From assembly GCA_021399395.1 (NCBI GenBank), contig JAAFKJ010000002.1:1-13347 (forward strand): a DNA stretch of 13,347 nt. Reading direction: 5' to 3'. The notes below the pieces were generated by a model that had not been told where the DNA came from, ran no database searches, and saw only the letters and a program-made list of their open reading frames with translations. A program made the position numbers and the translations under genes. The stretch is from Candidatus Heimdallarchaeota archaeon (GTDB lineage Archaea; Asgardarchaeota; Heimdallarchaeia; Heimdallarchaeales; Heimdallarchaeaceae). How positions within the stretch are numbered: position 1 is the stretch's first letter; each line of letters begins with the position of its first letter. Positions 1-13,347 of this stretch are shown one piece after another.

Positions 1-2
1 CA

Positions 3-248
3 AGAGTTTGCAAATGGAAGCAAGGAATTAGCGGAAGAAATCCAGAGGGTAAAGTTCAACCAATCAATTTTCCCTGTAGATATCCTAATGAAGAATTATC
101 GTCAGAATTGTGTACTCAGTGTCTTTTAGGAGACCTCTTTGCTATGTTCTACACACAAGCAATGAGCATTAGAAAAAGTTCTGATATGCAAGAGGAGATA
201 ATGGCTTTTCTAAAGAGCTTCACAACGGAAGATTTTGACATGAGATGA
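3..248 (+). CDS. 3' part of a hypothetical protein (5'-truncated at window edge), four Cys including CxxC
   Basis: Frame +3 is open from the window edge to TGA at 246-248: RVCKWKQGISGRNPEGKVQPINFPCRYPNEELSSELCTQCLLGDLFAMFYTQAMSIRKSSDMQEEIMAFLKSFTTEDFDMR*. A T-rich tract follows. Not in the ORF track. Confidence 0.6.
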   Translation, partial: RVCKWKQGISGRNPEGKVQPINFPCRYPNEELSSELCTQCLLGDLFAMFYTQAMSIRKSSDMQEEIMAFLKSFTTEDFDMR

Positions 249-268
249 TTCTTTATCTCTTTATTTCA
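249..268 (+). terminator. Putative archaeal T-rich terminator of the left partial ORF
   Basis: TTCTTTATCTCTTTATTTC directly after the stop codon, in a convergent intergenic gap. Confidence 0.3.
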
Positions 269-309
269 ATATCAAATATCTTCTAACCTATGTTTTATTC
301 TAGATATCA

Positions 310-1434
310 TTAGAAGATTTGGAGCTTATTGTAAAGAGTATCTCTTCTAACGGGTATTCTTTCAGCATCCCTTATCAAATCGATAAATTCTTCTGTACTC
401 TTCTCTTCACCAAAACTTCCTCCAGCACTCTTAGTTATATTCTCCGTAAATAGAGTCCCACCCAAATCATTTACACCAGCATTCAAAGAAACTTGAGCTA
501 ATTTAGGTCCTAATTTGACCCATGAAGCTTGAATATTAGAAAAAGATTCTCCAAGATATAATCTTGCTGTACTGAATAAAGCTAAATCGTGCATACCTGT
601 GCTACTTGGTCTTGCTCCCATGTATCTGTAGAGTTTAGTATTTGGATAAACAAAGGATAACGGGATGAATTCAGTAAATCCATTTGAAATTTGTTGAATA
701 TGTTTTAAAATTGCTAGATGTTCAGCTTCTTCTAAATAGGTTTCAATATGCCCATACATCATTGTGGCAGTTGATCTTAATCCTAGAGAATGCCCAGTTA
801 AAACAATGTTAGCCCATTGCTTTGTTGAAATTTTCTCAGGACAAATCTTTCTTCTCACATCATCTACAAGAATTTCTGCTGCAGTTCCAGGAAATGAATC
901 CAAACCTTCTTTCTTTAAATCTTTAAATATGTCTTCTACTGTTTCTCCAGAAATTTGTGACATAAAAGCAATTTCAGAAGGAGAAAAACCATGAATATGA
1001 ATATTTGAGGAAACGGATTTTATTGTTTTCAGAATATCAACATAAAACTCATAATTTAGTTCAGTATCTAATCCCCCTTGAATGCAGATTTCTGTACAGT
1101 TTCGAGCCACAGCTTTTTCTGTTTCAATCTGAATTTCTTCAAGCGACATCCTTGAGATCTTACTTTTAGATGTTTCAGGTTTTATGCTATAAGAACAAAA
1201 ACGACAGGATCCTATACAATATTGAGTGAAATTGATATTTTGATTAACTATGAAAGTAACTTCATCTCCAGATTGTTGAGTTCGTAATTCGTCCGCCACA
1301 GAAGTTTGTATCCACAGTTCTTTACCGCGCTTTTTTAACATCTGAGCTAATTCTTTGATCTCGTCTTTATGTGATGGTCCGAAATTGCTCAAATCACATA
1401 CTTCATCTATTATTGGAGTAGAGAGTTTCTTCAT
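310..1434 (-). CDS. cofH: FO synthase subunit 2 (CofH), radical SAM 5-amino-6-(D-ribitylamino)uracil--L-tyrosine 4-hydroxyphenyl transferase
   Basis: NINFTQYCIGSCRFCSY (CxxxCxxC), EICIQGG, PGTAAEILVDDVRRKICPEKI, TATMMYGHIE, GFTEFIPL, NIQASWVKLG and NDLGGTLFTENI are CofH/MqnC-family motifs. The adjacent cofG favours CofH. ATG at 1434 preferred over TTG at 1452; either start overlaps the cofG end. Confidence 0.9.
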   Translation of the reverse strand: MKKLSTPIIDEVCDLSNFGPSHKDEIKELAQMLKKRGKELWIQTSVADELRTQQSGDEVTFIVNQNINFTQYCIGSCRFCSYSIKPETSKSKISRMSLEEIQIETEKAVARNCTEICIQGGLDTELNYEFYVDILKTIKSVSSNIHIHGFSPSEIAFMSQISGETVEDIFKDLKKEGLDSFPGTAAEILVDDVRRKICPEKISTKQWANIVLTGHSLGLRSTATMMYGHIETYLEEAEHLAILKHIQQISNGFTEFIPLSFVYPNTKLYRYMGARPSSTGMHDLALFSTARLYLGESFSNIQASWVKLGPKLAQVSLNAGVNDLGGTLFTENITKSAGGSFGEEKSTEEFIDLIRDAERIPVRRDTLYNKLQIF

Positions 1435-2497
1435 TTTTATGATATTCCTCAATAATGTCTCTTAATCTACTGTTTAAATATTTTTCATATTGTGGATAAA
1501 CAGGTAATCGCTCTATAAGTTCATACTCTGAATCAATCAGCTGTTTGTGCAAAGTTTGTTCTTTATGCCATTCCATATTGGGATTAATGTAGTCAATTGT
1601 AACTGGAGAAATCCCCCCCACGTCATTTGCACCCGATTCCAAAGCATCAATAATTCTTGTTTTGTTTAAGTTCGGTGGGATTTGAATACTGATTGAATGA
1701 GATAAAATGAGACGCGCGACTGACAAGATAAGGAGTACCTCTTCATCTGAAGGAGGGGACCACTCTGCCATTGGTGTATTGGGCTGAGGATTGAAATTCT
1801 GTACAATTACTTCTTGAATATGGTTGTATTTTAGATGAATTTCATTTATTGTTTGTAAAGAGTCTATTCTCTCCTCCCAAGTTTCCCCAATTCCTATCAA
1901 AATACCAGTAGTAAAAGGAATCTTCAGTTGCCCCGCAGTTGATATAGTTTTAAGACGTAGAGAAGGCTTTTTTCCTGGTGATAAGTGATGAGGTTTCCCT
2001 TGCTCCATTAAACGTTCACTGCTTGTCTCTAACATGAGACCCATACTTGCATTTGTTTCTTTCAATAGACTTAGTTCTTCTAAACTTAAAATCCCTAAAT
2101 TTGAATGTGGAAGAAGATTTTCCTTTAAAGCAAGTTCACAGAAATTCTCCACATATTTTACTGTTGAATCAAATCCGTACTTAGATAAGAAATCTCTAGC
2201 AGTTTGATATTTTTCTTCTGGTTTTTCACCCAAAGTAATCAGGATTTCCTTACAATTTGCTTCTTTAGCTTTATTTAGCAACATCTGATATCTATCAGGT
2301 TTTATCCAACTACTAACATCATCTGAAACAAAACCACAATATCCACATCTATTCCGACATTGATGAGTTACTGGAACAAACAGATTGCGTGAAAAAGTTA
2401 CTATATTATTGTAATAATTCTCTTTTTTTTCCTTAGCTTTAAAGTACAATTCTTCTTTATTATTATCTAATGTTGAGAGAATTGTTTCGGTTTCCAT
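1403..2497 (-). CDS. cofG: FO synthase subunit 1 (CofG), 7,8-didemethyl-8-hydroxy-5-deazariboflavin synthase, radical SAM
   Basis: TFSRNLFVPVTHQCRNRCGYCGF (CxxxCxxC), SMGLMLET, PGKKPSLRL, IPFTTGILIGIGET, HIQEVIVQNF, QIPPNL, GANDVGGISPVTIDYINP and ERLPVYP are characteristic of CofG. Start is ATG 2497 or TTG 2506. Confidence 0.93.
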   Translation of the reverse strand: METETILSTLDNNKEELYFKAKEKKENYYNNIVTFSRNLFVPVTHQCRNRCGYCGFVSDDVSSWIKPDRYQMLLNKAKEANCKEILITLGEKPEEKYQTARDFLSKYGFDSTVKYVENFCELALKENLLPHSNLGILSLEELSLLKETNASMGLMLETSSERLMEQGKPHHLSPGKKPSLRLKTISTAGQLKIPFTTGILIGIGETWEERIDSLQTINEIHLKYNHIQEVIVQNFNPQPNTPMAEWSPPSDEEVLLILSVARLILSHSISIQIPPNLNKTRIIDALESGANDVGGISPVTIDYINPNMEWHKEQTLHKQLIDSEYELIERLPVYPQYEKYLNSRLRDIIEEYHKNEETLYSNNR

Positions 2498-2506
2498 GCC
2501 ATTCAA

Positions 2507-3178
2507 CTACTTTGGTTTAAGAGTTACGATAAATCCTTCTTCTAACTGATCAATTTTTTCCAATTTGAAGTTTAAAGTATCAGCAACATTAACCACAACT
2601 TCCTCTTCATACAGAGGTTTAGCATTGATAGTTCCTGCAAGTAAAGTGGCATAAAATATATGAAGTCTGTCAACTAGCTTTAACTTGAGAAATTGAGTAA
2701 TAATTTTTGATCCACCCTCAACAAGTAACTTGTTTACTTTGAATCCTTGTTTCAACTTATGGAGTATTTCAGTTAAGTCAAGATAACCATGCTGTTGTGA
2801 CTTTGAGATTTTTAGCACTTTGGCTCCTACTTCTTCCAATTGCTTAATTTTCTCCTCAGAAGAGTTTCCTGCAGTAACAATCAGAGTGGGATAATTTTCA
2901 AGGTTTGTTAAAATCTTAGAGGTTAGGGGTATTTTACATGTGGAGTCTAAGATGACGCGTAAAGGATGAGGTTTTTTAGGAGTTACATATCGAATTGTTA
3001 GTAAGGGGTCATCTTTTTCAATTGTATTTATTCCAACAAGTATGGCATCAACAGAATTTCGAAGTTCATGTACTCTTATCCAATCTTCTTTTGTTGAAAG
3101 GATTAATGCTCCTTCACTTGATGCTATAACTCCATCTAAAGAGCTTGCTACATTGATAATTACTTCTGGTCTTTCCAT
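2507..3178 (-). CDS. arfC: Stand-alone RibD C-terminal (DHFR-fold) reductase, 2,5-diamino-6-(ribosylamino)-4(3H)-pyrimidinone 5'-phosphate reductase (archaeal ArfC/MJ0671, Rib7-like)
   Basis: RPEVIINVASSLDG, EDWIRVHELRNSVDAILVGINTIEKDDPLLTIR, RVILDS and LLVEGG motifs. No N-terminal cytidine-deaminase domain. Confidence 0.85.
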   Translation of the reverse strand: MERPEVIINVASSLDGVIASSEGALILSTKEDWIRVHELRNSVDAILVGINTIEKDDPLLTIRYVTPKKPHPLRVILDSTCKIPLTSKILTNLENYPTLIVTAGNSSEEKIKQLEEVGAKVLKISKSQQHGYLDLTEILHKLKQGFKVNKLLVEGGSKIITQFLKLKLVDRLHIFYATLLAGTINAKPLYEEEVVVNVADTLNFKLEKIDQLEEGFIVTLKPK

Positions 3179-4311
3179 TTTACAATCTTTCCTTTAAACA
3201 TTTGAAAAACGATATCACTTGGTTCAGCTCTCATGGTAATAGCCGAGTAAACATCTTTTGAGTATTTGGTATTTGGACTATTCAAATCAATCCCTAATAA
3301 GTCTCCATAGAATCCTTCTGAGATTTGTCCTATTTGTCTTCTTATTATCTCTCCAGGATTAACCGTAACTGCTTTTAGAATTTCCTTTGGCAAAATAGTT
3401 TGATAGTTGCTTCTCGCCGAGTAAAGAGTAAATGCCATAAGTCTAAAGGGGTCGGGATTATTACAGAAGGTATTGTCAGTCCCTAAGCCAAGTAGAAGTT
3501 CATTTTTCAGAATAAGTGCAATTGGGGGAAATTTCAGACCATGATAGAGATTTGAAATAGGACAACAGATGACATTTGTATTGTTTTTCTTAAGAAGAAT
3601 AAGATCATTTTCATTTGAATAAGTCGCATGAACAACAAAATCAAAGAATGGATATTCACATATTTTCTCTATATCTGGTTTTCCGAATCTAGTTAGGGAT
3701 TCAGAAATTACCTCCATTGACTCAGATGCATGAATAGCAGCTATTTTCTCTTGATTATTTTCTTTCAAGTCCTTTGTTTGTCTCATAATGTCTTCATCAA
3801 TTGAAAAGACATCTGAAAAACCAAACCCATCAGACATCTCAGAAATATCGGCTAGATTATTATCTCCATATTGACGTCCTAAAATAACAGCTCTTATTGG
3901 ATATTCGTTCAATTCCTCTTTCAGGAGTTTTATTCCATCTATCCCTTCTTCTCTAAAATCAACAAAAGCAGTAAAACCGTTTTTTACATGCATATCTAGC
4001 GAATTACGTATACTTTGAGCTTTCTCTTCTTCCGATTTAGAATTAAGTGTAGAGTGTTTTACCCCTTTTGGTCCAACAGCTTCTTCAAGCGTAAGTCCAT
4101 ATGTAAAGTCCTTAAGGCAAGCATCAGCAACATGAGTATGTGCGTTGATAAAACCTGGAATTATCACATTTGATGGAGGTAACACATATTCGGCAGTTTT
4201 CTGCTCATTTGATACTTTTTGAATTATTCCCTTCTCATCTATCTGAATTAAAATATCCTCTACAAATTTCAAATCCGGACCGATTAATGCATTTCCACGA
4301 ACTGTGACCAT
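3160..4311 (-). CDS. Metal-dependent amidohydrolase/deaminase (ATZ/TRZ, archaeal chlorohydrolase/MJ0699-like); candidate pyrimidine deaminase
   Basis: PGFINAHTH (HxH), DFREEGIDGIKLL, AIHASE (HxxE), VVHAT, CPISN, LGTDN and AVTVNPG form a deaminase-type amidohydrolase metal site. Its stop overlaps the reductase start by 19 nt. Start is ATG 4311 or TTG 4317. Confidence 0.85.
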   Translation of the reverse strand: MVTVRGNALIGPDLKFVEDILIQIDEKGIIQKVSNEQKTAEYVLPPSNVIIPGFINAHTHVADACLKDFTYGLTLEEAVGPKGVKHSTLNSKSEEEKAQSIRNSLDMHVKNGFTAFVDFREEGIDGIKLLKEELNEYPIRAVILGRQYGDNNLADISEMSDGFGFSDVFSIDEDIMRQTKDLKENNQEKIAAIHASESMEVISESLTRFGKPDIEKICEYPFFDFVVHATYSNENDLILLKKNNTNVICCPISNLYHGLKFPPIALILKNELLLGLGTDNTFCNNPDPFRLMAFTLYSARSNYQTILPKEILKAVTVNPGEIIRRQIGQISEGFYGDLLGIDLNSPNTKYSKDVYSAITMRAEPSDIVFQMFKGKIVKWKDQK

Positions 4312-4337
4312 TTTCAAGGTGATATTTCAATGATAAG

Positions 4338-4350
4338 ATAATAAATCTTT
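4338..4350 (-). promoter_or_regulatory. Possible TATA box for the amidohydrolase-arfC-cofG-cofH operon (near-leaderless transcript)
   Basis: The minus strand reads AAAGATTTATTAT, about 20-35 nt upstream of the candidate starts. No clear SD precedes the start. Confidence 0.3.
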
Positions 4351-4377
4351 GTAGGTCAAAATAAGCTGGCATACATT

Positions 4378-4400
4378 CGCAAAAATCATTATATTTATAA
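4378..4400 (+). promoter_or_regulatory. Putative BRE/TATA promoter of the EF-2-like gene
   Basis: CGCAAAAATCATTATATTTATAA ends 45 nt upstream of ATG 4446. An SD-like GTGAT at 4436-4440 lies 5 nt before the ATG. Confidence 0.45.
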
Positions 4401-4445
4401 TAAGAACTATTGAAAATAGCCTCATAGCACAATTCGTGATAAAAA

Positions 4446-6677
4446 ATGGTTCGTGTAAAGAATCCAGATGAAATTCGTGATATGATTAAGAATCACCCAA
4501 TGGAGCTAAGAAGAGTTTTTTCCATTGCGGCACATATCGATCATGGTAAAACAACAACAAGTGACTATCTTCTTCGTAAAGCAGGTCTAATGTCTGATGC
4601 TGATGCAGGTAAAAAAGTTATGATGGACTCAGATGAAGAAGAACAAGAAAGAGGTATTACTATCTTTACTTCAGTTGTTATGCTCAACTATGAATATGAA
4701 GATGAAAATGGGGAGACTAAATCTTACCTATTTGAAATTAATGATACACCGGGACACATTAGTTTCACTGGTGAAGTTAGTAGAGCACTACGTGGTAGTG
4801 ACGGTGTAATTTTGCTTGTTGATGCACTTGAAGGTATTATGACTCAAACTGAAACAAATATCAGACTTAGTTTAAATGAACAATGTAAGCCTGTTCTCTT
4901 TATTAATAAAGTAGATAGACTGATTTCCGAGTTACGATTAGCTCCTGCAGATGTTTTCCAGAAAATTGACAATATCCTCAATGGTGTAAACAAACTCATT
5001 AGAGATAACGCTCCAGAAGGAACTGGCAAAAAATGGCAAGTTTCATTTAAGGATGGCTCAGTTGCAGTAGGAAGTGCAAAAGATGGTTGGGCATTCAATA
5101 TGGCCACTTTGCAGCGATTGAAGATTAAGCCACAAGATGTATTTGCTAAATATGGAGAAAATGATAAAGAATGGTTGAGAGAAAATCTCCCTCTTGAAGA
5201 ACCTCTTCTTGAAATGGTTATCAAACATTTACCAAATCCAATACAGGGGCAACAAGTGAAAATACCCGCGATTTGGGGTGGAGATGTAAACAGTCCTGTA
5301 GGTCAATCTTTGATGACATGTGATAGAGATGGACCTTTAATGGGAATGATTACCAAGATCTTCATTGAGCCAAAATCTAAACGACCAACACTTATCGGAA
5401 GAGTTTTTTCCGGGACTCTAAGGAGTTCAGATTCGCTCTTTCTTATGGGTAAGAAAACTTCTGCTAGAATTAAACGTCTTGGTGTAATGGAAATTACAGA
5501 CATTCTTGATGTTGATGAGGTCCCTGCAGGAAATCTTTTTGCGATTTATGGGTTCATCACTCCAGCCGGAGAAACCTTTGTTAAAGAAGGTGAAGAAGGC
5601 AATCTTACATCATTTGAAGAGATATCTTATGTAGCTGAACCTGTTGTTAGTAGAACAATTAAACCAAGAGATCCTCAAGACATTGCAAAATTAGGAGAAG
5701 TGGTTTCCAAGTGGATTATGGCAGACCCTACCGCAACATTTAGACATGACCAAGAATCAAAAACATATGTATTATCAGGTATCGATCCACTACAGATTGA
5801 AATTCTTGTAACAAGAATTGAAGAACAAGTTCCGATTGAGGTAAGTGATCCAATCATTGTTTACAGAGAAGTTCCAACAAAGCAAGGTATCACTGTCCAC
5901 GCTAAATCTCCAAATGGTCATAACAGACTTATGATAAATGTTCAACCTTTGAACCAAGCGTCAATAGATCTGATAGCTTCAGGCAAAGTCCATAATGATC
6001 AAGAAAGAAGAGAAAGAGCTAATCTTCTACAGGCAGAAGGCGGATGGGAAGCCAAACGAGCAAGAAGAATTTGGTATATTAAAGACTCAAATATGATAAT
6101 TGATGCCACATCGGGTGTTCAAAGATTAGATAATATCAAAGCGTATATCATTCAGATATTCATTGATTTCTGTGATGGTGCAACATTAGCTAAAGAACCT
6201 TTGATGGGATCATTATTCACAATCACAGATGCTACAGTTCACGTAGATCCTGCTCATACAGGTTTTACTGAAATCTTCCAAATGTGTTTGGCAGCATTCC
6301 ATACATCTTTCCTTACAAGTGAGCCACAAGTTCTGGAACCAATGCAAATAATCGATATCAAAGTCCCTTCAGATTATGTAGGAAATATGTCCAAAGTTAT
6401 TACTCAACACAGAGGTGTAATTCTAGATATGCTCCAAGAAGGAGAAAACACTAGAATACGAGGAAAAATACCAACAGCAGAAACTATAGATTTAGCTGAT
6501 GAAATAAGAGGAAATAGTTCAGGAAGAGCCTTCTTCGGGTATGAATTCACAGGATTTGAACGCGTTCCAGTAAGCTTAGAACAAGAGATTATTGAGAGCA
6601 TAAGAACTCGTAAAGATCTATCACCTCAAGTTCCTGATGTTTCTAATTGGGATAGGTTCATGTATAAACGTTCATAA
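4446..6677 (+). CDS. Archaeal elongation factor 2 family translational GTPase, probably the divergent paralog aEF-2p
   Basis: G1 AHIDHGKTT, G2 EQERGITI, G3 DTPGH, G4 NKVD, G5 GSAK, GRVFSGT, VSDPIIVYRE, KSPNGHNR and LEPMQ. The 743-aa length is EF-2-like. Non-canonical motifs are HTG for HRG and GIDPLQIE for GMGELHLE. No ribosomal protein genes flank it. Confidence 0.9.
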   Translation: MVRVKNPDEIRDMIKNHPMELRRVFSIAAHIDHGKTTTSDYLLRKAGLMSDADAGKKVMMDSDEEEQERGITIFTSVVMLNYEYEDENGETKSYLFEINDTPGHISFTGEVSRALRGSDGVILLVDALEGIMTQTETNIRLSLNEQCKPVLFINKVDRLISELRLAPADVFQKIDNILNGVNKLIRDNAPEGTGKKWQVSFKDGSVAVGSAKDGWAFNMATLQRLKIKPQDVFAKYGENDKEWLRENLPLEEPLLEMVIKHLPNPIQGQQVKIPAIWGGDVNSPVGQSLMTCDRDGPLMGMITKIFIEPKSKRPTLIGRVFSGTLRSSDSLFLMGKKTSARIKRLGVMEITDILDVDEVPAGNLFAIYGFITPAGETFVKEGEEGNLTSFEEISYVAEPVVSRTIKPRDPQDIAKLGEVVSKWIMADPTATFRHDQESKTYVLSGIDPLQIEILVTRIEEQVPIEVSDPIIVYREVPTKQGITVHAKSPNGHNRLMINVQPLNQASIDLIASGKVHNDQERRERANLLQAEGGWEAKRARRIWYIKDSNMIIDATSGVQRLDNIKAYIIQIFIDFCDGATLAKEPLMGSLFTITDATVHVDPAHTGFTEIFQMCLAAFHTSFLTSEPQVLEPMQIIDIKVPSDYVGNMSKVITQHRGVILDMLQEGENTRIRGKIPTAETIDLADEIRGNSSGRAFFGYEFTGFERVPVSLEQEIIESIRTRKDLSPQVPDVSNWDRFMYKRS

Positions 6678-6678
6678 A

Positions 6679-6716
6679 TTCTTTTTTCTTTCCTTTCTTT
6701 TCTTTATTTTTGTTTA
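6679..6716 (+). terminator. Poly-pyrimidine (T-tract) terminator of the EF-2-like gene
   Basis: TTCTTTTTTCTTTCCTTTCTTTTCTTTATTTTTGTTT immediately after TAA 6675-6677. Confidence 0.6.
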
Positions 6717-6807
6717 TCTGTCTTTAGAGACCTTCTTGTTAGGATACCCTTACAATAACCACCTTATTGTTTCCACTGGAAAAATTTCTTTGCAAAATAA
6801 TGTAAAT

Positions 6808-6844
6808 GAGAAAAAATAAAGGAAAAAATGAGTGAAGAAGGGGA
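6808..6844 (-). terminator. T-tract terminator of the MoxR-cluster operon
   Basis: The plus-strand purine/A tract GAGAAAAAATAAAGGAAAAAATG is a T-tract on the minus strand, just after the stop at 6845. Confidence 0.5.
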
Positions 6845-8347
6845 TTAGTCTTCGTCGTCCCCAAATTCATCTGAAAGTTGTTCATAGAACAAATCTTCTT
6901 CAGTAATTGGTTCTAACTCTCCTTCAGTAATGACACCAGGAAGTTCTTCTTCCATGAATTGTTGATCTGCTAGCATTGGGTCTAAAGCATCTTCAAATCG
7001 TTTGGAGAATCGCTCTTGAATGAACCCTATGAGAGAGGTAAGTAGTAATATGAAGATTACAATAGGAATTAGCAATAATACAACACCTTCTGGCTGTAGC
7101 ATCTCAAGGGAGTTATAAATTGGAGGTGGATATCTTAGAACAAAAAGCAAGATATCTGGATTGAGTATTGCGTACAATCCTGCGAGCATTATGAGAACTC
7201 TAAATATCACCGAAGTTAGAACGTAGACTATTGTCATAAGTGGTTTAACAGTAACTTCTGCACCAACTAGTTTCTCATCGACTCTAGGATCACTATGTAC
7301 CAAACCATCGTGGTATCTTTGTAATCTAGAAGTCAGTTTATCACGTTGTCCTCCTGGACGGGAGAAAAGTGAATCCGAAGCTTTTTCTAAGAAGTATGTC
7401 ATCCCTGCAACTCCGAATTTACGAGCAATAGAACTACCCGTTCCACCAATTGATTTTCCAGCTTGTTTTTCATCTTCTGTTTCAGCTGATTCGGTTTGTG
7501 GTTGAGCAGGGGATGTAGATGTCACACCCAATCTAAAGTCATTCAATCTATTTAGTGCCCTCAGTACACGCTGTTGTCTGCTTTGCGCAGGATTCAGTAA
7601 TTGTGAAATATACGAGATCTGTAAGGCTATCTCTAGGAACAGGTATGAAGAGAGTGCAATTAACACCACACTGTTTGAAAACAGCTCGCCTAGATTCTTT
7701 GTTGGTGAGAATCTAAAGCTAGAACTGAATAGTAGTTGTACGCTTCCATGGAAGACAATTACTTGTATACTAACAAACGCAGCTGCTGCAGAACGCATAT
7801 CAGCTCTAAACAGGAACGCTGAAAGAGATATTATTAGTAGTAGTATGAAAAACAGCATGAATGAAGCACGATTAGCTACCCGAAGAGGTTGAAGTATTTC
7901 CCCACTAAAAAGATAACCAAATGATGAGAACATATCCAAAGCTTCAGTTCCAAAGAGCAAATTACTGTCTACTCCAGATGGAGGATTAATGCTTCCAAAT
8001 AAATCACCCGTCAAGAAAGCTTTTGCACCTAACAAGAGACCACTGGCATCATTTCCTAAGAATGTAACAAATATCATCATAGGAGCTGTAAAGATTATGA
8101 TAGCTATTAGTTCTATTAGGACAAAGATAAATGAGATAGAGTCTATAAAATACCCTTCTGGAAATCTTGTAGGATCATCAAAGGCTATGAGTGTGAATAA
8201 TAACACGAGTACCCAAGCTATTGCACCAATTGCTAGTAATCTTCCAATTGTATGTGTAATTAAGGTCTGGATTCGCGCACCTCTAATCCTACTTTGAACT
8301 CCTCTTATTCCAAGGTCAATAATTCTTGTATCTGATAATGATTCCAT
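6845..8347 (-). CDS. Hypothetical polytopic membrane protein (about 6-7 TM segments, long basic loop, acidic C-terminal tail)
   Basis: 500-aa ORF. An SD GGGTGA overlapping the upstream stop lies 6 nt before the ATG. Seven hydrophobic stretches; no family motif recognised. Confidence 0.8.
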   Translation of the reverse strand: MESLSDTRIIDLGIRGVQSRIRGARIQTLITHTIGRLLAIGAIAWVLVLLFTLIAFDDPTRFPEGYFIDSISFIFVLIELIAIIIFTAPMMIFVTFLGNDASGLLLGAKAFLTGDLFGSINPPSGVDSNLLFGTEALDMFSSFGYLFSGEILQPLRVANRASFMLFFILLLIISLSAFLFRADMRSAAAAFVSIQVIVFHGSVQLLFSSSFRFSPTKNLGELFSNSVVLIALSSYLFLEIALQISYISQLLNPAQSRQQRVLRALNRLNDFRLGVTSTSPAQPQTESAETEDEKQAGKSIGGTGSSIARKFGVAGMTYFLEKASDSLFSRPGGQRDKLTSRLQRYHDGLVHSDPRVDEKLVGAEVTVKPLMTIVYVLTSVIFRVLIMLAGLYAILNPDILLFVLRYPPPIYNSLEMLQPEGVVLLLIPIVIFILLLTSLIGFIQERFSKRFEDALDPMLADQQFMEEELPGVITEGELEPITEEDLFYEQLSDEFGDDED

Positions 8348-8353
8348 ATTTTT

Positions 8354-9805
8354 TCACCCTTGTCTTTGCATCCTGTTAAATTGAGCCATTACTGTTGGCA
8401 AGAAATCATCTGGTCCAACTGAGATTGAAACAGCATCATATCTTCTGAGCATTTTGAACATGTTCTGGCGTTCTCCTAATTGTTTCTCAACCATTGCAAA
8501 ACCTATCATTTGTTCTAATGGTGAAAGTTGCTGTGAAACAATTTCAAACCAAGGTCCAAATGGAGATAATAGAGTAATATTATGCTTTCGAGCACGAGCT
8601 CTACGAATAGCTTGAACCACACGTTCAGGATGAGATTCAAGATCAGTTAAAATAACCAAATACGCAGAACGTTTAACTCTTTGGAGCACATATTCTATGG
8701 CTTTTTCAAGGTCTGATTCACCTTCAGGTTTTGTGTGAGCTAATACTTCCAAAAATTGGAACAAACGGGTTCTGGTAGAAGTGATATCTACCCAATTTTT
8801 GACTTTGTCACCATAAACACATAAACCTACAAGATCTCTCTTTTCAAATCCTAAGTGAATAAGGAGAACTGCACTTCGAATAGCATATTCCAGCTTAGTA
8901 TTTCTCGGTAAACCCGCACCCATGCTTGCTGAAGAATCGATCAAAATTATAAGACGAATATTTTCTTCAGATTCGAATTCACGAACCATCATTTTACCAG
9001 AACGAGAAAAAGCTTTCCAGTCTATAAACTTGAACGCATCACCAGTTTGATACTTTCTAATACCCCAGAACTCTGTTCCCATTCCCTTTAGCTTTGTTCT
9101 GTGCACTCCGAAAAGTAATCCTAACTGTCTTTTCTTTCCGACCATTTCCAGCTTCTTTATATCCTCATAACTTGGATACACCAATATTTCTGTCTTACTT
9201 CTTATCTTTCCTTCAGTTGCATAGAATCCCATTCGGTCTCTTATGATAACTTTAGTAGGACCAATTTCAAACAATCCTCGGATTGGTATTCTTACCACAT
9301 ACCCATAGCTAATTGTTTGTCTAGGATTCAGTTGAGTAACAATGAAGTTTTCACCTAGAACTAAATCAAATACTTCTGGAATAGCATCGTATATCTCGAT
9401 TGCAGGTAATTGGTTTACAGATTTGTTTCTTACAGTTACTTCTATGTAAACGTAATCTCCAGCAAATGCTTTTGGTTTTGATACCCTTCGTTTGATTTCA
9501 ATAGATTTTGGATTTGACCCTAGTCTATAAAATGGCAGACCTAATAATACGGAGAAGATTAACATTACTCCACCTATTATAAAGAACCAAATTAGGGTTC
9601 CAGCTCTGTCCATGTAGAAATGAAGGAAATCCATCACTCCGAATCCTTGAGAAGTTCCCGGGGCAACATAGGTATCGTTTGGTTGTGGATTAAATCCGAA
9701 CGAGTCGAACATGACGTTGATTGATAAATATCCAGCTAAGGCAAAGCCTACGCTAATCATGATGATCCCAGCAAATATCAACCATCCTCCACGACGTGTA
9801 AACAC
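8354..9805 (-). CDS. DUF58 / von Willebrand A domain protein with two N-terminal TM helices and an Ig-like segment (MoxR partner)
   Basis: GTEFWGIRKYQTGD...IDWKAFSR...VREFESE DUF58 signature, MIDAS-like IDSSASM, KLEYAI, DLVGL and ILTDL. GTG start with SD AGGTGG 5 nt upstream. Confidence 0.88.
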   Translation of the reverse strand: MFTRRGGWLIFAGIIMISVGFALAGYLSINVMFDSFGFNPQPNDTYVAPGTSQGFGVMDFLHFYMDRAGTLIWFFIIGGVMLIFSVLLGLPFYRLGSNPKSIEIKRRVSKPKAFAGDYVYIEVTVRNKSVNQLPAIEIYDAIPEVFDLVLGENFIVTQLNPRQTISYGYVVRIPIRGLFEIGPTKVIIRDRMGFYATEGKIRSKTEILVYPSYEDIKKLEMVGKKRQLGLLFGVHRTKLKGMGTEFWGIRKYQTGDAFKFIDWKAFSRSGKMMVREFESEENIRLIILIDSSASMGAGLPRNTKLEYAIRSAVLLIHLGFEKRDLVGLCVYGDKVKNWVDITSTRTRLFQFLEVLAHTKPEGESDLEKAIEYVLQRVKRSAYLVILTDLESHPERVVQAIRRARARKHNITLLSPFGPWFEIVSQQLSPLEQMIGFAMVEKQLGERQNMFKMLRRYDAVSISVGPDDFLPTVMAQFNRMQRQG

Positions 9806-9832
9806 TATTTTCCACCTATTTCCATTTTCGTT

Positions 9833-10834
9833 CTATACTGGTACAGGGAGGTTTCTCAATATTTCATTGACAACCATTGTACCTGTTGTTCCTTCTAGCT
9901 CTGCTTCAGGTTTCATTTGTAGTCTATGTGCTGTAGATACTCTTGCTATTCTCTTAATATCATCGGGAATAACATAATCTCTACCTCTCATAGCTGCAAC
10001 AGACTTTGAAGCATTTAATAAAGCGATACTACATCTTGGACTTCCTCCAAGTTGCAACCTAGGATCGGTCCTTGTTGATACTACGACATCTCTGATGTAC
10101 ACCATCAAGTCTTCATGGATGTAAATCTTGGTTTCAACAGCTTCCTTCATCTTAACGATGGTCATAGGAGTGGTAACTCGTCGGACAGATTGTCGAATTT
10201 GTTTGTGTTTAAGCCTGATAATATCCATCTCTTCTTCAGGAGAAGGTAGATCAACTAAGAGCTTAAACATGAACCTGTCAACTTGAGCTTCAGGCAAAGG
10301 ATAGGTCCCCTCCTGTTCTATGGGGTTCTGAGTCGCTATAACTAAGAATGGATCTTCCAGTTTGAAAGTTGTTCCTTCCACTGTTACTTGTTTTTCTCCC
10401 ATGGCTTCTAATAGCGCTGCTTGTGTTTTTGGAGGGCTTCTGTTAATTTCGTCTGCTAGAAGAATGTTGGTAAAGATAGGTCCTTTTCTCATTTTGAATG
10501 TTCCTGCTTTAGGATCATAAATGGTAGTACCTACAATATCTGATGGCAAAAGATCTGGTGTAAATTGCACACGCTTAAACTCACATCCTAGAGTTTGTGC
10601 AAAAGTCTTTGCCATTACTGTTTTTGCAATACCTGGTACACCTTCTAAAAGACAATGTCCTCCAGCTAGTAGTGAGATGAACATATCTTCTAGAACATCC
10701 AATTTGCCAACTATGACTCTTTTCAGTTCGCTGTATATTTCATCCCACACTCTCTTAATGTCTTTCGGAGTAACAACTGCTTCTGTAGCTGCTTTTGCTT
10801 TTCCTTTTACTTCTTCTTGTTTTTCTTCACTCAT
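9833..10834 (-). CDS. moxR: MoxR-family AAA+ ATPase (MoxR-proper type)
   Basis: Walker A GVPGIAKT, RVQFTPDLLPSDIVG, Walker B LLADEINRSPPKTQAALLEAM, ATQNPIEQEGTYPLPEAQVDRF and GSPR. ATG 10834 with an upstream GTGA is preferred over GTG 10843. Confidence 0.95.
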   Translation of the reverse strand: MSEEKQEEVKGKAKAATEAVVTPKDIKRVWDEIYSELKRVIVGKLDVLEDMFISLLAGGHCLLEGVPGIAKTVMAKTFAQTLGCEFKRVQFTPDLLPSDIVGTTIYDPKAGTFKMRKGPIFTNILLADEINRSPPKTQAALLEAMGEKQVTVEGTTFKLEDPFLVIATQNPIEQEGTYPLPEAQVDRFMFKLLVDLPSPEEEMDIIRLKHKQIRQSVRRVTTPMTIVKMKEAVETKIYIHEDLMVYIRDVVVSTRTDPRLQLGGSPRCSIALLNASKSVAAMRGRDYVIPDDIKRIARVSTAHRLQMKPEAELEGTTGTMVVNEILRNLPVPV

Positions 10835-10850
10835 TTTTTTCACATTTCCT

Positions 10851-12509
10851 TTATCTTGCTTTAGGCAATCTATCGATTAAATCTCTAATAAATGTCATAT
10901 ATTTCATGAACAGAAATTCAGGCAGGATCTTTGGTCTAGCCAAATAAGTATCTATTCTGATTAAAGTTTCAAGCAGATTCTTATGTTTCATAGAAGGATC
11001 TATCTCTATGAAGTATGCTGCCATCTCTTCTGGTGTCGACATCGATTGTTTTGTAACTCTCCTCAAATTCCTAATCAATGTTCGATGCAATAATCCCACT
11101 GCTTCACTATAAGCACCTGTTTCAACAATTCTCCGTATTTCTCTCTCAAATCTAGACTTTCCTTTTTCTCCTCTATATTTGGTCCAAAGAACTGGGGTCA
11201 ATCTTGTTTTCTTAGGTATTAGTTTGTATCCTAATACTGCAAAGATTATTGGGACAAATGGAGAGTATAATGGAAACATCGACATTTCTGTCAAAAATCT
11301 CATTATAGTCATTGAATAAACAGAAGCACTATAGAATTTCTGATGAGTATGACCTTCATCAAAAATAATTGGTGCTGACCTGGCATTACCTGTTACGTTT
11401 AAATCTTCTGTCAGATAATTGAACAGATTAAGACTAAATTGTAAATTATCATTCTCTGTAGTTTGATCTATCCATTTGTTAATGAATATATCAGGGTCTC
11501 CAATCATAACAATCTTTCCTGAGCCTATGGGAAGTGTCATAATTGGGGAGAACATAACTCCGCCCCATTCATCTGCATCTGGTGTAGCTGTTCCGTCTTT
11601 TGCTGATTGAAAATCAGATTCCATCCAAGCTGATTCAGTTGTATAAAATGGCAAAAACGGTAAGAATTGGTTTTCTATTTCCATACCAAATAGTTCTAAG
11701 GTAACTGCTTGTAAAGGCATCCAGTCTGTTCGATACGTTTTAACCGTTTCAGTTCCTCCACTGTCTAAATAATGTGGATGATGAATAGCGATACTTAATA
11801 CTGTACCAAACTCCATTTGAAGGTGAGTTACACCTGCAGTTAACGGATTGGAAGGTTCCATATTTATTAGAACGGGCTGTGCTGGATTTGTAGTATAACT
11901 ACCTGCATCCATAAGAACTGAACCATTGAACGCAAATCCTCTAAGCATGCCTAACATCTCAAACATTAGAGCTTCTTCTGTAAGACCTTCCGATTCATTT
12001 GCACCAAAACCAAACATATCCTGTAGAGAAGACATTCCTGCAACTGCAGCTACTTCTTCCCAAGTGTTAAGTATGTTAAACAACGGTTCAAAAATTTCAG
12101 CTCCCGTTCCATAATCATCCGCAACCACTAAGCTACCTCCTCTTGCTAAGAACGTTATCAATGAGATAGTATCTGTTGTTGAATATTGGGTAGCTGGACC
12201 CATAATTGCTAGAACACCTGGTTCATACACTCTATTTAGTAAAGATAAGGAAGACATACCATTAGTTATATTTGTATAGCCCTCGCTTTGGAGTGCCACA
12301 CGCAAACTAGATAATCCATCCCAATTCTCATTATATATACTAAATTTCATTCCAGCTCCACCTAAACCTACTATCCCTAGCAATATAGGTACCACTATGA
12401 TCAAGAAGAGGATAGACATCACTATCGTATATTTAGTGAAACTGAAGTTTATCCTAATCTTTCTTCTTGATTTTCTTCCTTGTCTTTGTTTGGGTTCTTG
12501 CTGGCTCAA
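10851..12509 (-). CDS. DUF4350-like membrane-anchored surface protein with a C-terminal helical cytoplasmic domain
   Basis: Basic N-terminus plus TM helix. FSIYNENWDGLSSL, FLARGGSLVVADDYG, GKIVMIGDPDIFIN and IIFDEGH are typical of DUF4350/GATase-like-fold proteins of MoxR clusters. A second TM lies near residues 405-430. TTG start. Confidence 0.75.
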   Translation of the reverse strand: MSQQEPKQRQGRKSRRKIRINFSFTKYTIVMSILFLIIVVPILLGIVGLGGAGMKFSIYNENWDGLSSLRVALQSEGYTNITNGMSSLSLLNRVYEPGVLAIMGPATQYSTTDTISLITFLARGGSLVVADDYGTGAEIFEPLFNILNTWEEVAAVAGMSSLQDMFGFGANESEGLTEEALMFEMLGMLRGFAFNGSVLMDAGSYTTNPAQPVLINMEPSNPLTAGVTHLQMEFGTVLSIAIHHPHYLDSGGTETVKTYRTDWMPLQAVTLELFGMEIENQFLPFLPFYTTESAWMESDFQSAKDGTATPDADEWGGVMFSPIMTLPIGSGKIVMIGDPDIFINKWIDQTTENDNLQFSLNLFNYLTEDLNVTGNARSAPIIFDEGHTHQKFYSASVYSMTIMRFLTEMSMFPLYSPFVPIIFAVLGYKLIPKKTRLTPVLWTKYRGEKGKSRFEREIRRIVETGAYSEAVGLLHRTLIRNLRRVTKQSMSTPEEMAAYFIEIDPSMKHKNLLETLIRIDTYLARPKILPEFLFMKYMTFIRDLIDRLPKAR

Positions 12510-12897
12510 CTACTTCTACACCCTGTTCTCTTATTCCTCTGAAACAGATATCTAATCTCTGGACTGCTTCTTGGTAATCATCGTATGATATCTCAGCGTC
12601 AGTATATCTTGCAATCTCAAATGAAGTAAGGTATTCATCCATAACTTCATGTGAAATATTCGCTCTATCTGCTACTTGGAATCCAAATTCTCTACCTGTT
12701 TGGTAAGGAGCTCGAGCTAATTCAAGAAGTCCGTCAGCGATATTTGTTAAACCACCAAAAGAGGCTATAACTGCGCCTTTGTAATCTTGTCTCTGCTCAA
12801 AAATTCGAACATCAGCCATAACTGATGTAAACATCTGGTTCAAAGCTTTTACTTGCTTTCTTCTTTTAAAGAATCCAAAGAATCCACTATGACTCAA
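12454..12897 (-). CDS. Stand-alone DUF4129-like protein
   Basis: YQTGREF...FEIARY...EIS motif typical of DUF4129. TTG start with SD AGGTGA 8 nt upstream. Overlaps both neighbours. Confidence 0.7.
   Translation of the reverse strand: MSHSGFFGFFKRRKQVKALNQMFTSVMADVRIFEQRQDYKGAVIASFGGLTNIADGLLELARAPYQTGREFGFQVADRANISHEVMDEYLTSFEIARYTDAEISYDDYQEAVQRLDICFRGIREQGVEVVEPARTQTKTRKKIKKKD
12868..12885. repeat. Perfect 9-bp tandem duplication (AAAGAATCC x2) encoding GFF-GFF
   Basis: Read directly at 12868-12876 and 12877-12885. Confidence 0.8.
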
Positions 12898-13345
12898 TTT
12901 TCATTTCACCTATTTCTATTTTATCTACTAGTTTTAATAAAGCACGTACGCCTGTGTTGAAATCTTTCTCGGTGATTTCTTCGTGACCATAACGTGCCAT
13001 TTCGAAATACAACAATAGAGTATTGACGAGTTCACTCTCAATCTTTCCTCTATATGCTAATAATCTTGCAAATTCTGTAGGAGTCTGACTCCTATATCTT
13101 GGTAGATCATAGAATTCTCTACCGATTCCCTCCAAAACACTCCAACTTTTAAGTAAGCCATCTTTATATCTCCCTTCTAAACCATCCTTCTTGATCTCCT
13201 CAATAATTTCACGAAGATAATCTTGTAATCTTCGTTTGAATGTTTGTTTTTTAGCGTAAGTTTTGATTGTGTGTCTATTAAACCATAAGAACAATCCAGC
13301 TAGAAGAACTACAATTCCTCCAACTACTCCCCCAATAATGGCACC
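12887..13345 (-). CDS. C-terminal part of a membrane protein: Gly-rich TM helix followed by a DUF4129-like domain (5'-truncated at window edge)
   Basis: The frame stays open beyond the ORF-track start at 13294 up to the window edge, giving GAIIGGVVGGIVVLLAGLFLWFNRH. This is followed by RSQTPTEF...FEMARYGHEEIT. Confidence 0.8.
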   Translation of the reverse strand, partial: GAIIGGVVGGIVVLLAGLFLWFNRHTIKTYAKKQTFKRRLQDYLREIIEEIKKDGLEGRYKDGLLKSWSVLEGIGREFYDLPRYRSQTPTEFARLLAYRGKIESELVNTLLLYFEMARYGHEEITEKDFNTGVRALLKLVDKIEIGEMKIES

Positions 13346-13347
13346 TA

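Follow-up and report, generated by a model that had tools for sequence, protein, structure and literature searches.

A candidate amidohydrolase-type pyrimidine deaminase in an FO synthase operon of a Heimdallarchaeota genome

According to the available text of Rodionova et al. (2017; PMC5397151), Archaea lack orthologues of the RibD deaminase domain, and a candidate for the deamination step, termed PyrD, was proposed from gene clustering and co-occurrence by Osterman, Overbeek and Rodionov in 2010, a prediction that in 2017 "remains to be tested". The table of that paper has MJ0699 in its PyrD column and, for Nitrosopumilus maritimus, the same source gives PyrD as Nmar_1613, flanked by ArfA (Nmar_1614) and ArfC (Nmar_1612) within the operon ribBHA-pyrD-arfC. 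In the accessible part of a later survey, HVO_2483/MJ0699 was still carried as an unconfirmed prediction (Pfeiffer and Dyall-Smith, 2021; PMC8305020). Here, a member of this family is described from a stretch of 13,347 nucleotides (nt) of a Candidatus Heimdallarchaeota archaeon (assembly GCA_021399395.1, contig JAAFKJ010000002.1, positions 1 to 13,347; hereafter the window), where an amidohydrolase gene heads an operon with genes for the reductase ArfC and the FO synthase subunits CofG and CofH. The amidohydrolase is probably the deaminase of the FO/riboflavin pyrimidine intermediate, 2,5-diamino-6-ribitylamino-4(3H)-pyrimidinone 5'-phosphate, judging from its family, its gene linkage and its co-occurrence with the consumers of the pathway product. 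These same three lines favor the original prediction for this DNA, made from sequence alone, which had placed the enzyme at that gap in the pathway; its remark that MJ0699-like amidohydrolases had been proposed earlier, without a biochemical assignment, agrees with the available text of both papers. The deaminase role of the family has been in print since 2010, and the window contributes an additional member rather than a new idea.

The four genes lie tightly packed on the minus strand of the window. The amidohydrolase (3160..4311) comprises 383 amino acids (aa) from an ATG at 4311, and ArfC, the archaeal-type 2,5-diamino-6-ribosylamino-4(3H)-pyrimidinone 5'-phosphate reductase (2507..3178), comprises 223 aa. 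The two radical S-adenosylmethionine (radical-SAM) subunits of FO synthase follow, CofG (1403..2506; 367 aa) and CofH (310..1452; 380 aa from a TTG at 1452, with an alternative ATG at 1434). The last 19 nt of the amidohydrolase gene overlap the start of arfC, arfC and cofG are separated by 0 nt (TTG at 2506) or 9 nt (ATG at 2497), and cofG and cofH overlap by 50 or 32 nt according to which start of cofH is used. The co-oriented arrangement given in the original prediction (a 19-nt overlap, a gap of 0-9 nt and an overlap of at least 32 nt) is thereby confirmed, with the third junction bounded at 32-50 nt. A TTG at 4317 is likewise open to the amidohydrolase, and translation more probably begins at the ATG at 4311, because 21 aligned relatives, the window protein included, share the N-terminus MV[TSA][VI]R.NAL from this codon. 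CofG and CofH are identified by scores of 434.5 bits against NF004884 (cut-off 209) and 429.4 bits against TIGR03551 (cut-off 374.1), respectively, and both carry the radical-SAM CxxxCxxC motif (2359..2336 in CofG and 1218..1195 in CofH). ArfC scores 164.6 bits against TIGR00227, over the cut-off of 150.15, and 167.9 bits against TIGR01508, under the cut-off of 186.45, together with 145.6 bits against Pfam RibD_C. Each of the 27 loci fetched from the window's family (L095-L120 and L122) has the order amidohydrolase-ArfC-CofG; these loci are short, such that CofH is visible only where a locus is long enough (L138, L139), and the order is found again in L008, L078 and L082. Since the order recurs in 27 of 27 family loci, the arrangement is not due to chance, and the four genes are presumably co-transcribed.

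The Pfam matches of the amidohydrolase are limited to Amidohydro_1 (97.7 bits) and Amidohydro_3, and the same scan gave no match to PF00383, the model of the cytidine-deaminase (CDA) fold. Among the NCBIfam models, NF005552 (PRK07213, "chlorohydrolase") ranks first with 274.7 bits, and the runner-up family reaches 94 bits. The deaminase-type site read in the original prediction (HxH, HxxE, H and GTD) was located at H58-x-H60, H194-x-x-E197, H228 and G277-T-D279 (383-aa numbering), and neither an alignment of 12 family members nor one of 50 shows any variation at H58, H60, H194, E197, H228 or D279. The metal and catalytic residues are also common to the four other deaminase-type amidohydrolases of the same genome, namely a 457-aa protein on contig C106 that scores 481 bits against the DadD model NF005557, two MtaD-like proteins (C21, 437 aa; C86, 448 aa) and an SsnA-like protein (C41, 438 aa). 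Eight residues (D63, K85, R120, E121, R146, C250, N280 and R361) never vary within the family and occur in none of the four paralogues. In a quick maximum-likelihood tree in which these NCBIfam-labelled paralogues served as the outgroup, 42 family rows, including the Nitrosopumilus members from rib operons, were split from them with an SH-aLRT support of 100; the tie to MJ0699 rests on the published table and on a control match in Methanocaldococcus jannaschii, not on this tree.

These data bear on a different reading, under which the enzyme would be a DadD/MtaD-type deaminase that disposes of 5'-deoxyadenosine, a by-product of CofG and CofH, and so relieves product inhibition. Sharing an operon with two radical-SAM enzymes is what such a role would lead one to expect, and the window protein has the superfamily fold and the metal and catalytic residues in common with DadD and MtaD. 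It differs from such paralogues in being about 60-70 residues shorter, in forming a separate clade and in having invariant residues of its own, and it scores only 77.5 bits against NF005557 (cut-off 522) and 41.7 bits against NF012037 (cut-off 779). Moreover, because the genome holds the far closer DadD-type paralogue on C106 as well as the MtaD-like ones, the by-product role has better candidates than the operon enzyme. The original prediction had named such by-product disposal as its main alternative; profile and tree both place the amidohydrolase in the rib-operon family, separate from the DadD-, MtaD- and SsnA-like paralogues, and disposal of 5'-deoxyadenosine is, on this and the genomic evidence given below, a quite improbable function.

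The predicted structure is in keeping with a deaminase of the amidohydrolase superfamily. The AlphaFold2 model (mean pLDDT 95.6, pTM 0.94) has a (beta/alpha)8 barrel with a beta-sandwich formed by the N- and C-terminal parts, and the top Foldseek matches are deaminases and chlorohydrolases of the superfamily (TMq 0.82-0.88). The nearest solved folds are methylthioadenosine (MTA)/adenosine deaminases, AtzA, isocytosine deaminase, TM0936 and guanine deaminase at 15-22% identity; the structure library searched held no solved structure of an NF005552-family member, the nearest entry being 22% identical. That MTA/adenosine deaminases are among the closest folds (TM 0.85-0.88) is a further point on the side of by-product disposal. 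TIM-barrel active sites lie at strand ends, and two of the family-specific residues, R120 and R146, are at ends of predicted barrel strands; together with K85 and R361, these extra basic residues would fit a phosphorylated substrate. Guanine and isocytosine deaminases attack the same 2-amino-4-oxopyrimidine moiety that is predicted to be attacked here. Guanine, isocytosine (Vcz) and 8-oxoguanine deaminases are among the sequence and fold matches and share the fold and the H-x-x-E machinery with the window protein, from which they differ in sequence (15-19% identity) and in acting on free bases as opposed to the predicted ribityl-phosphate-bearing substrate. The N-terminal domain of RibD and fungal Rib2 are likened to the window protein by the step alone, C2 deamination of a diaminopyrimidine, which is predicted to be the same; their cytidine-deaminase fold is unrelated, and the amidohydrolase would therefore be a non-homologous replacement. 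Fungal Rib2 deaminates after the reduction step, as described in the available part of a recent review (PMC13151069). A search of the window genome with PF00383 returned two proteins of the cytidine-deaminase fold, one ComEB/dCMP-deaminase-like and one a cytidine deaminase, and no RibD-type deaminase, and no other candidate for the deamination step was found in that genome.

Gene neighborhoods across Archaea connect the amidohydrolase with the branch that leads to 5-amino-6-ribitylaminouracil. Eighty relative loci were fetched and compared with the window by clustering of neighboring open reading frames (ORFs) and naming of the clusters with NCBIfam. In 65 of these 81 loci, most of them from related Nitrososphaeria, ArfC adjoins the amidohydrolase, and the linkage to rib and cof genes that the original prediction had foreseen among homologs is strong. 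Nitrososphaeria loci, including those of Nitrosopumilus, have the order RibE, RibB, RibH, ArfA, amidohydrolase, ArfC; since the Nitrosopumilus order is that of the published ribBHA-pyrD-arfC operon, the amidohydrolase occupies the pyrD slot. Asgard loci of the Jord and Freya types have RibB, one further gene, RibH, ArfA, amidohydrolase and ArfC in that order. A window-like series of amidohydrolase, ArfC, CofG and CofH was found in one Heimdall metagenome-assembled genome and in two other archaeal loci, and in a Methanomethylicia locus the amidohydrolase adjoins a gene of the CofG/CofH family (best match of its cluster, CofH). Within the Heimdall class the partners vary by family among ArfC-CofG, ArfC alone, RibH, RibA/ArfC and CofH-CofG. 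In Methanobacteriaceae, carA-carB, encoding carbamoyl-phosphate synthase, precedes the family member at L067, L073-L075, L077 and L079. Compared with the published PyrD candidates, the window protein agrees in hidden Markov model (HMM) family (by a wide margin), clade, catalytic residues and adjacency to ArfC. The differences are that its operon partners are CofG and CofH rather than RibB, RibH and ArfA, that the upstream enzyme of its lineage is GTP cyclohydrolase II and not ArfA, and that its host family appears to be without riboflavin synthesis; it is 31-33% identical to the N. maritimus protein (P0100). The location of the gene among RibB, RibH, ArfA and ArfC in Nitrososphaeria, in Jord and Freya Asgard archaea and in Heimdall family f4, with no adjoining radical-SAM gene, further argues against a 5'-deoxyadenosine deaminase.

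The same neighborhoods raise the possibility that the enzyme substitutes for ArfB, that is, that it is a formamide hydrolase removing the formyl group left by GTP cyclohydrolase III (ArfA). In Nitrososphaeria and in Jord and Freya Asgard archaea the gene sits directly between ArfA and ArfC, and the amidohydrolase superfamily includes amide hydrolases. Canonical ArfB is, in the available text of two comparative papers, missing or just predicted in many archaea (PMC8305020; PMC5397151). Within the Heimdall class, sampled here as 83 species genomes including that of the window, ArfA (PF05165) was found in none and GTP cyclohydrolase II in 62, yet the amidohydrolase is kept. Because GTP cyclohydrolase II leaves no formyl group, its retention there disfavors a deformylase. 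The H-x-x-E signature is, in addition, common to the deaminase-type paralogues, and a distinct ArfB, Nmar_0222, is listed for N. maritimus in the published table (PMC5397151). Substitution for ArfB is accordingly regarded as very improbable, and C2 deamination of the ribitylaminopyrimidinone remains the preferred function.

If the amidohydrolase makes a precursor shared by FO and riboflavin, it should occur together with the enzymes that consume 5-amino-6-ribitylaminouracil, scored here as CofH over its cut-off or as PF00885, which covers lumazine synthase and also archaeal riboflavin synthase. At an NF005552 threshold of E<=1e-40, the amidohydrolase was called in 54 of the 83 genomes; CofH was found in 54 and PF00885 in 14. 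This threshold is too strict for family f4, where it hid five divergent orthologues, and at E<=1e-26 longer ORFs of 439-458 aa turn up that were read as paralogues. A strong amidohydrolase match together with a consumer was found in 53 genomes and a weaker match (96-137 bits) together with a consumer in 5, in 3 of which it adjoins RibH; neither was found in 23. The exceptions are two: a genome with a strong match and no consumer (G019), in which the contig ends after ArfC-CofG, and a 70% complete genome (G055) with CofH and no amidohydrolase. Such a pattern would be expected of the enzyme producing this common precursor. In genus g14, CofH is present in each of the 13 genomes that carry the amidohydrolase, at a distance of 49-355 kb on the same contig, and only one of the 9 genomes without the amidohydrolase has CofH. 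That the presence of the amidohydrolase follows CofH in this genus is again compatible with the disposal of a radical-SAM by-product; contrary to that role, the amidohydrolase is present in three genomes that are negative for CofH and bear RibH (G035, G039 and G045, the last 93% complete), and in family f4 its neighbor is RibH in genomes that lack CofH, such as G045. Six g14 genomes (G051-G054, G060 and G061) have kept an ArfC-like gene (147-174 bits against TIGR01508) and, except for G052, RibA, and in these no amidohydrolase of the NF005552 family, CofH or lumazine synthase was found.

Several observations weigh against the assignment of the operon enzyme as the pyrimidine deaminase. Its NF005552 score lies just below the curated cut-off of 294 bits, with a match spanning positions 2-378 of the 382 in the model, and this cut-off is reached in none of the 83 Heimdall-class genomes; a family member from Nitrososphaera scores 335 bits, over the cut-off. 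The genomes compared are related and not independent, and the co-occurrence counts overstate the support that they lend. In g14, the amidohydrolase is lost in step with CofH, with RibA and an ArfC-like gene retained, and a role tied to radical-SAM chemistry predicts the same. One genome that consists of a single contig of 3.3 Mb (G007) has the amidohydrolase-ArfC-CofG-CofH operon and neither a PF00925 match nor ArfA. The window genome is 81.8% complete, and what is absent from it carries little weight alone. No assay of a family member was found in the full-text literature, including the available part of the 2026 riboflavin review (PMC13151069), in a search whose coverage did not extend to most subscription journals. 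Finally, in Methanobacteriaceae, CarA/CarB are beside the family member in 5 of 7 loci, with one more in which an ORF lies between, and no rib gene is present; one Halobacteriales locus and two others have neither a rib nor a cof neighbor.

The last of these observations speak for yet another function, namely the deamination or hydrolysis of a different heterocycle, such as a pterin, a guanine-type base or a damaged intermediate, with a loose link to the pathway, such as the salvage or repair of its side-products. Sequence is a poor guide to substrate in this superfamily, and the nearest solved structure is at most 22% identical. On the other hand, the gene keeps its place beside genes of the 5-amino-6-ribitylaminouracil branch in Nitrososphaeria, in several Asgard classes and in Methanomethylicia, it occurs where the precursor has a consumer, and the indispensable deamination step would be left with no other candidate found in the genome. 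A different heterocycle as the substrate is considered unlikely, and the pyrimidine intermediate is retained as the probable substrate in what follows.

With this substrate, the operon would serve as a compact supply of FO, which is the chromophore of coenzyme F420. RibA, whose gene lies elsewhere in the genome, would make 2,5-diamino-6-ribosylamino-4(3H)-pyrimidinone 5'-phosphate, the ribosyl side chain of which would be reduced by ArfC before deamination. The amidohydrolase, as a mononuclear-metal deaminase, would then remove the C2 amino group by hydrolysis, yielding 5-amino-6-ribitylaminouracil 5'-phosphate. A phosphatase would take off the phosphate, CofH and CofG would condense the product with tyrosine to FO, and CofD and CofE, likewise encoded elsewhere, would extend FO to F420. 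The window genome encodes a stand-alone RibA (GTP cyclohydrolase II; 226.6 bits against TIGR00505, cut-off 205.85), CofD (323.6 bits) and two CofE proteins of PF01996 (G000:C169:12259-12912 and G000:C172:2503-3150; 231 and 228 bits). F420 genes in Heimdall archaea were already known, as stated in the available text of PMC8498797. A photolyase antenna was considered as a user of FO and was rejected, there being no PF00875 match in the genome and both CofD and CofE being present.

The remainder of riboflavin synthesis is a different matter. RibB, RibH or archaeal riboflavin synthase, RibE and ArfA were not found in the window genome by tblastn and local HMMs, nor when the search was repeated with Pfam models in view of a possible bias from queries that were mostly from Nitrososphaeria. 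The window's family (f1) comprises 31 genomes, 72-95% complete and two of them single-contig. Among these, GTP cyclohydrolase II is present in 30 and CTP-dependent riboflavin kinase in 29, RibH/RibC (PF00885) in only 1 and RibB in 2, both as bacterial-type RibBA fusions of about 400 aa. In the 22 genomes of g14, PF00885 was not found, and RibB was not searched. The one RibH genome of the family (G006) has RibH beside a RibBA of about 400 aa at C1:242281-243929, with bacterial-type scores of 194, 240 and 280 bits, and its rib genes look like a horizontally acquired bacterial cluster. A similar RibBA on a short contig of another genome (G022:C204) may be contamination. The riboflavin kinase ORF of the window genome (G000:C70:17008-17373) is 238 aa long, compared with 121 positions in the kinase model, and may include the DNA-binding domain found at the N-terminus of the RbkR regulator (Rodionova et al.). 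With riboflavin kinase kept in 29 of 31 genomes, the family presumably lives on imported riboflavin, and, given that RibB and RibH are missing and the kinase is not, F420 is apparently the only end product of the pyrimidine branch. We lean, if only slightly, toward the view that the window's family and g14 gave up riboflavin synthesis and keep GTP cyclohydrolase II, ArfC, the amidohydrolase and CofGH for FO and F420 only; no paper was found that proposes such F420-only use in Heimdall lineages. The original prediction of a module from the riboflavin/FO precursor to FO thus stands in part: the supply of FO and F420 is upheld, and the riboflavin side appears not to be, since RibB and RibH are missing from the window's family in all but 1-2 of the 31 genomes.

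Upstream of the operon, a putative element of the BRE (B recognition element)/TATA type lies at 4335..4352 on the minus strand (CTACAAAGATTTATTATC), roughly 25-40 nt ahead of the ATG at 4311. Among the upstream regions of the 21 aligned relatives, that of the window included, the best conserved block is an A-rich box followed by TCTTAATA or CTTTATTA, and this A-rich and TATA-like block is likely to be the archaeal promoter of the operon. A scan for sigma-70 promoters and terminators gave sites no commoner than in shuffled sequence, with models that are inapplicable to archaea. Divergent from the operon is a gene of the EF-2 family (4446-6677, plus strand; 645.9 bits against TIGR00490, under the cut-off of 738.45). 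The rest of the window encodes, on the minus strand, a 500-aa multi-pass membrane protein that matches nothing in Pfam or NCBIfam (6845-8347), a DUF58/VWA protein (8354-9805), a MoxR-type AAA ATPase (9833-10843), a DUF4350 protein (10851-12509) and two DUF4129 proteins (12454-13294).

The deamination step is, the phosphatase aside, the last of the pyrimidine branch of archaeal riboflavin and F420 synthesis for which the enzyme is without a demonstrated protein, and the Heimdall lineage offers a cleaner case in which to examine it. The window lineage has no ArfA/ArfB ambiguity because GTP cyclohydrolase II is used, it has no RibD-type deaminase, and because it apparently makes no riboflavin, only FO and F420 lie downstream of the amidohydrolase. 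A reconstitution with RibA, ArfC, the amidohydrolase, a phosphatase and CofGH would be straightforward in design, with fluorescent FO as the read-out. If the pyrimidine branch indeed serves F420 alone in these archaea, the shared branch would here have become uncoupled from vitamin B2 in nature, leaving F420 as the single read-out of the candidate deaminase. The pattern suggests that certain Asgard archaea combine vitamin B2 auxotrophy with F420 synthesis of their own.

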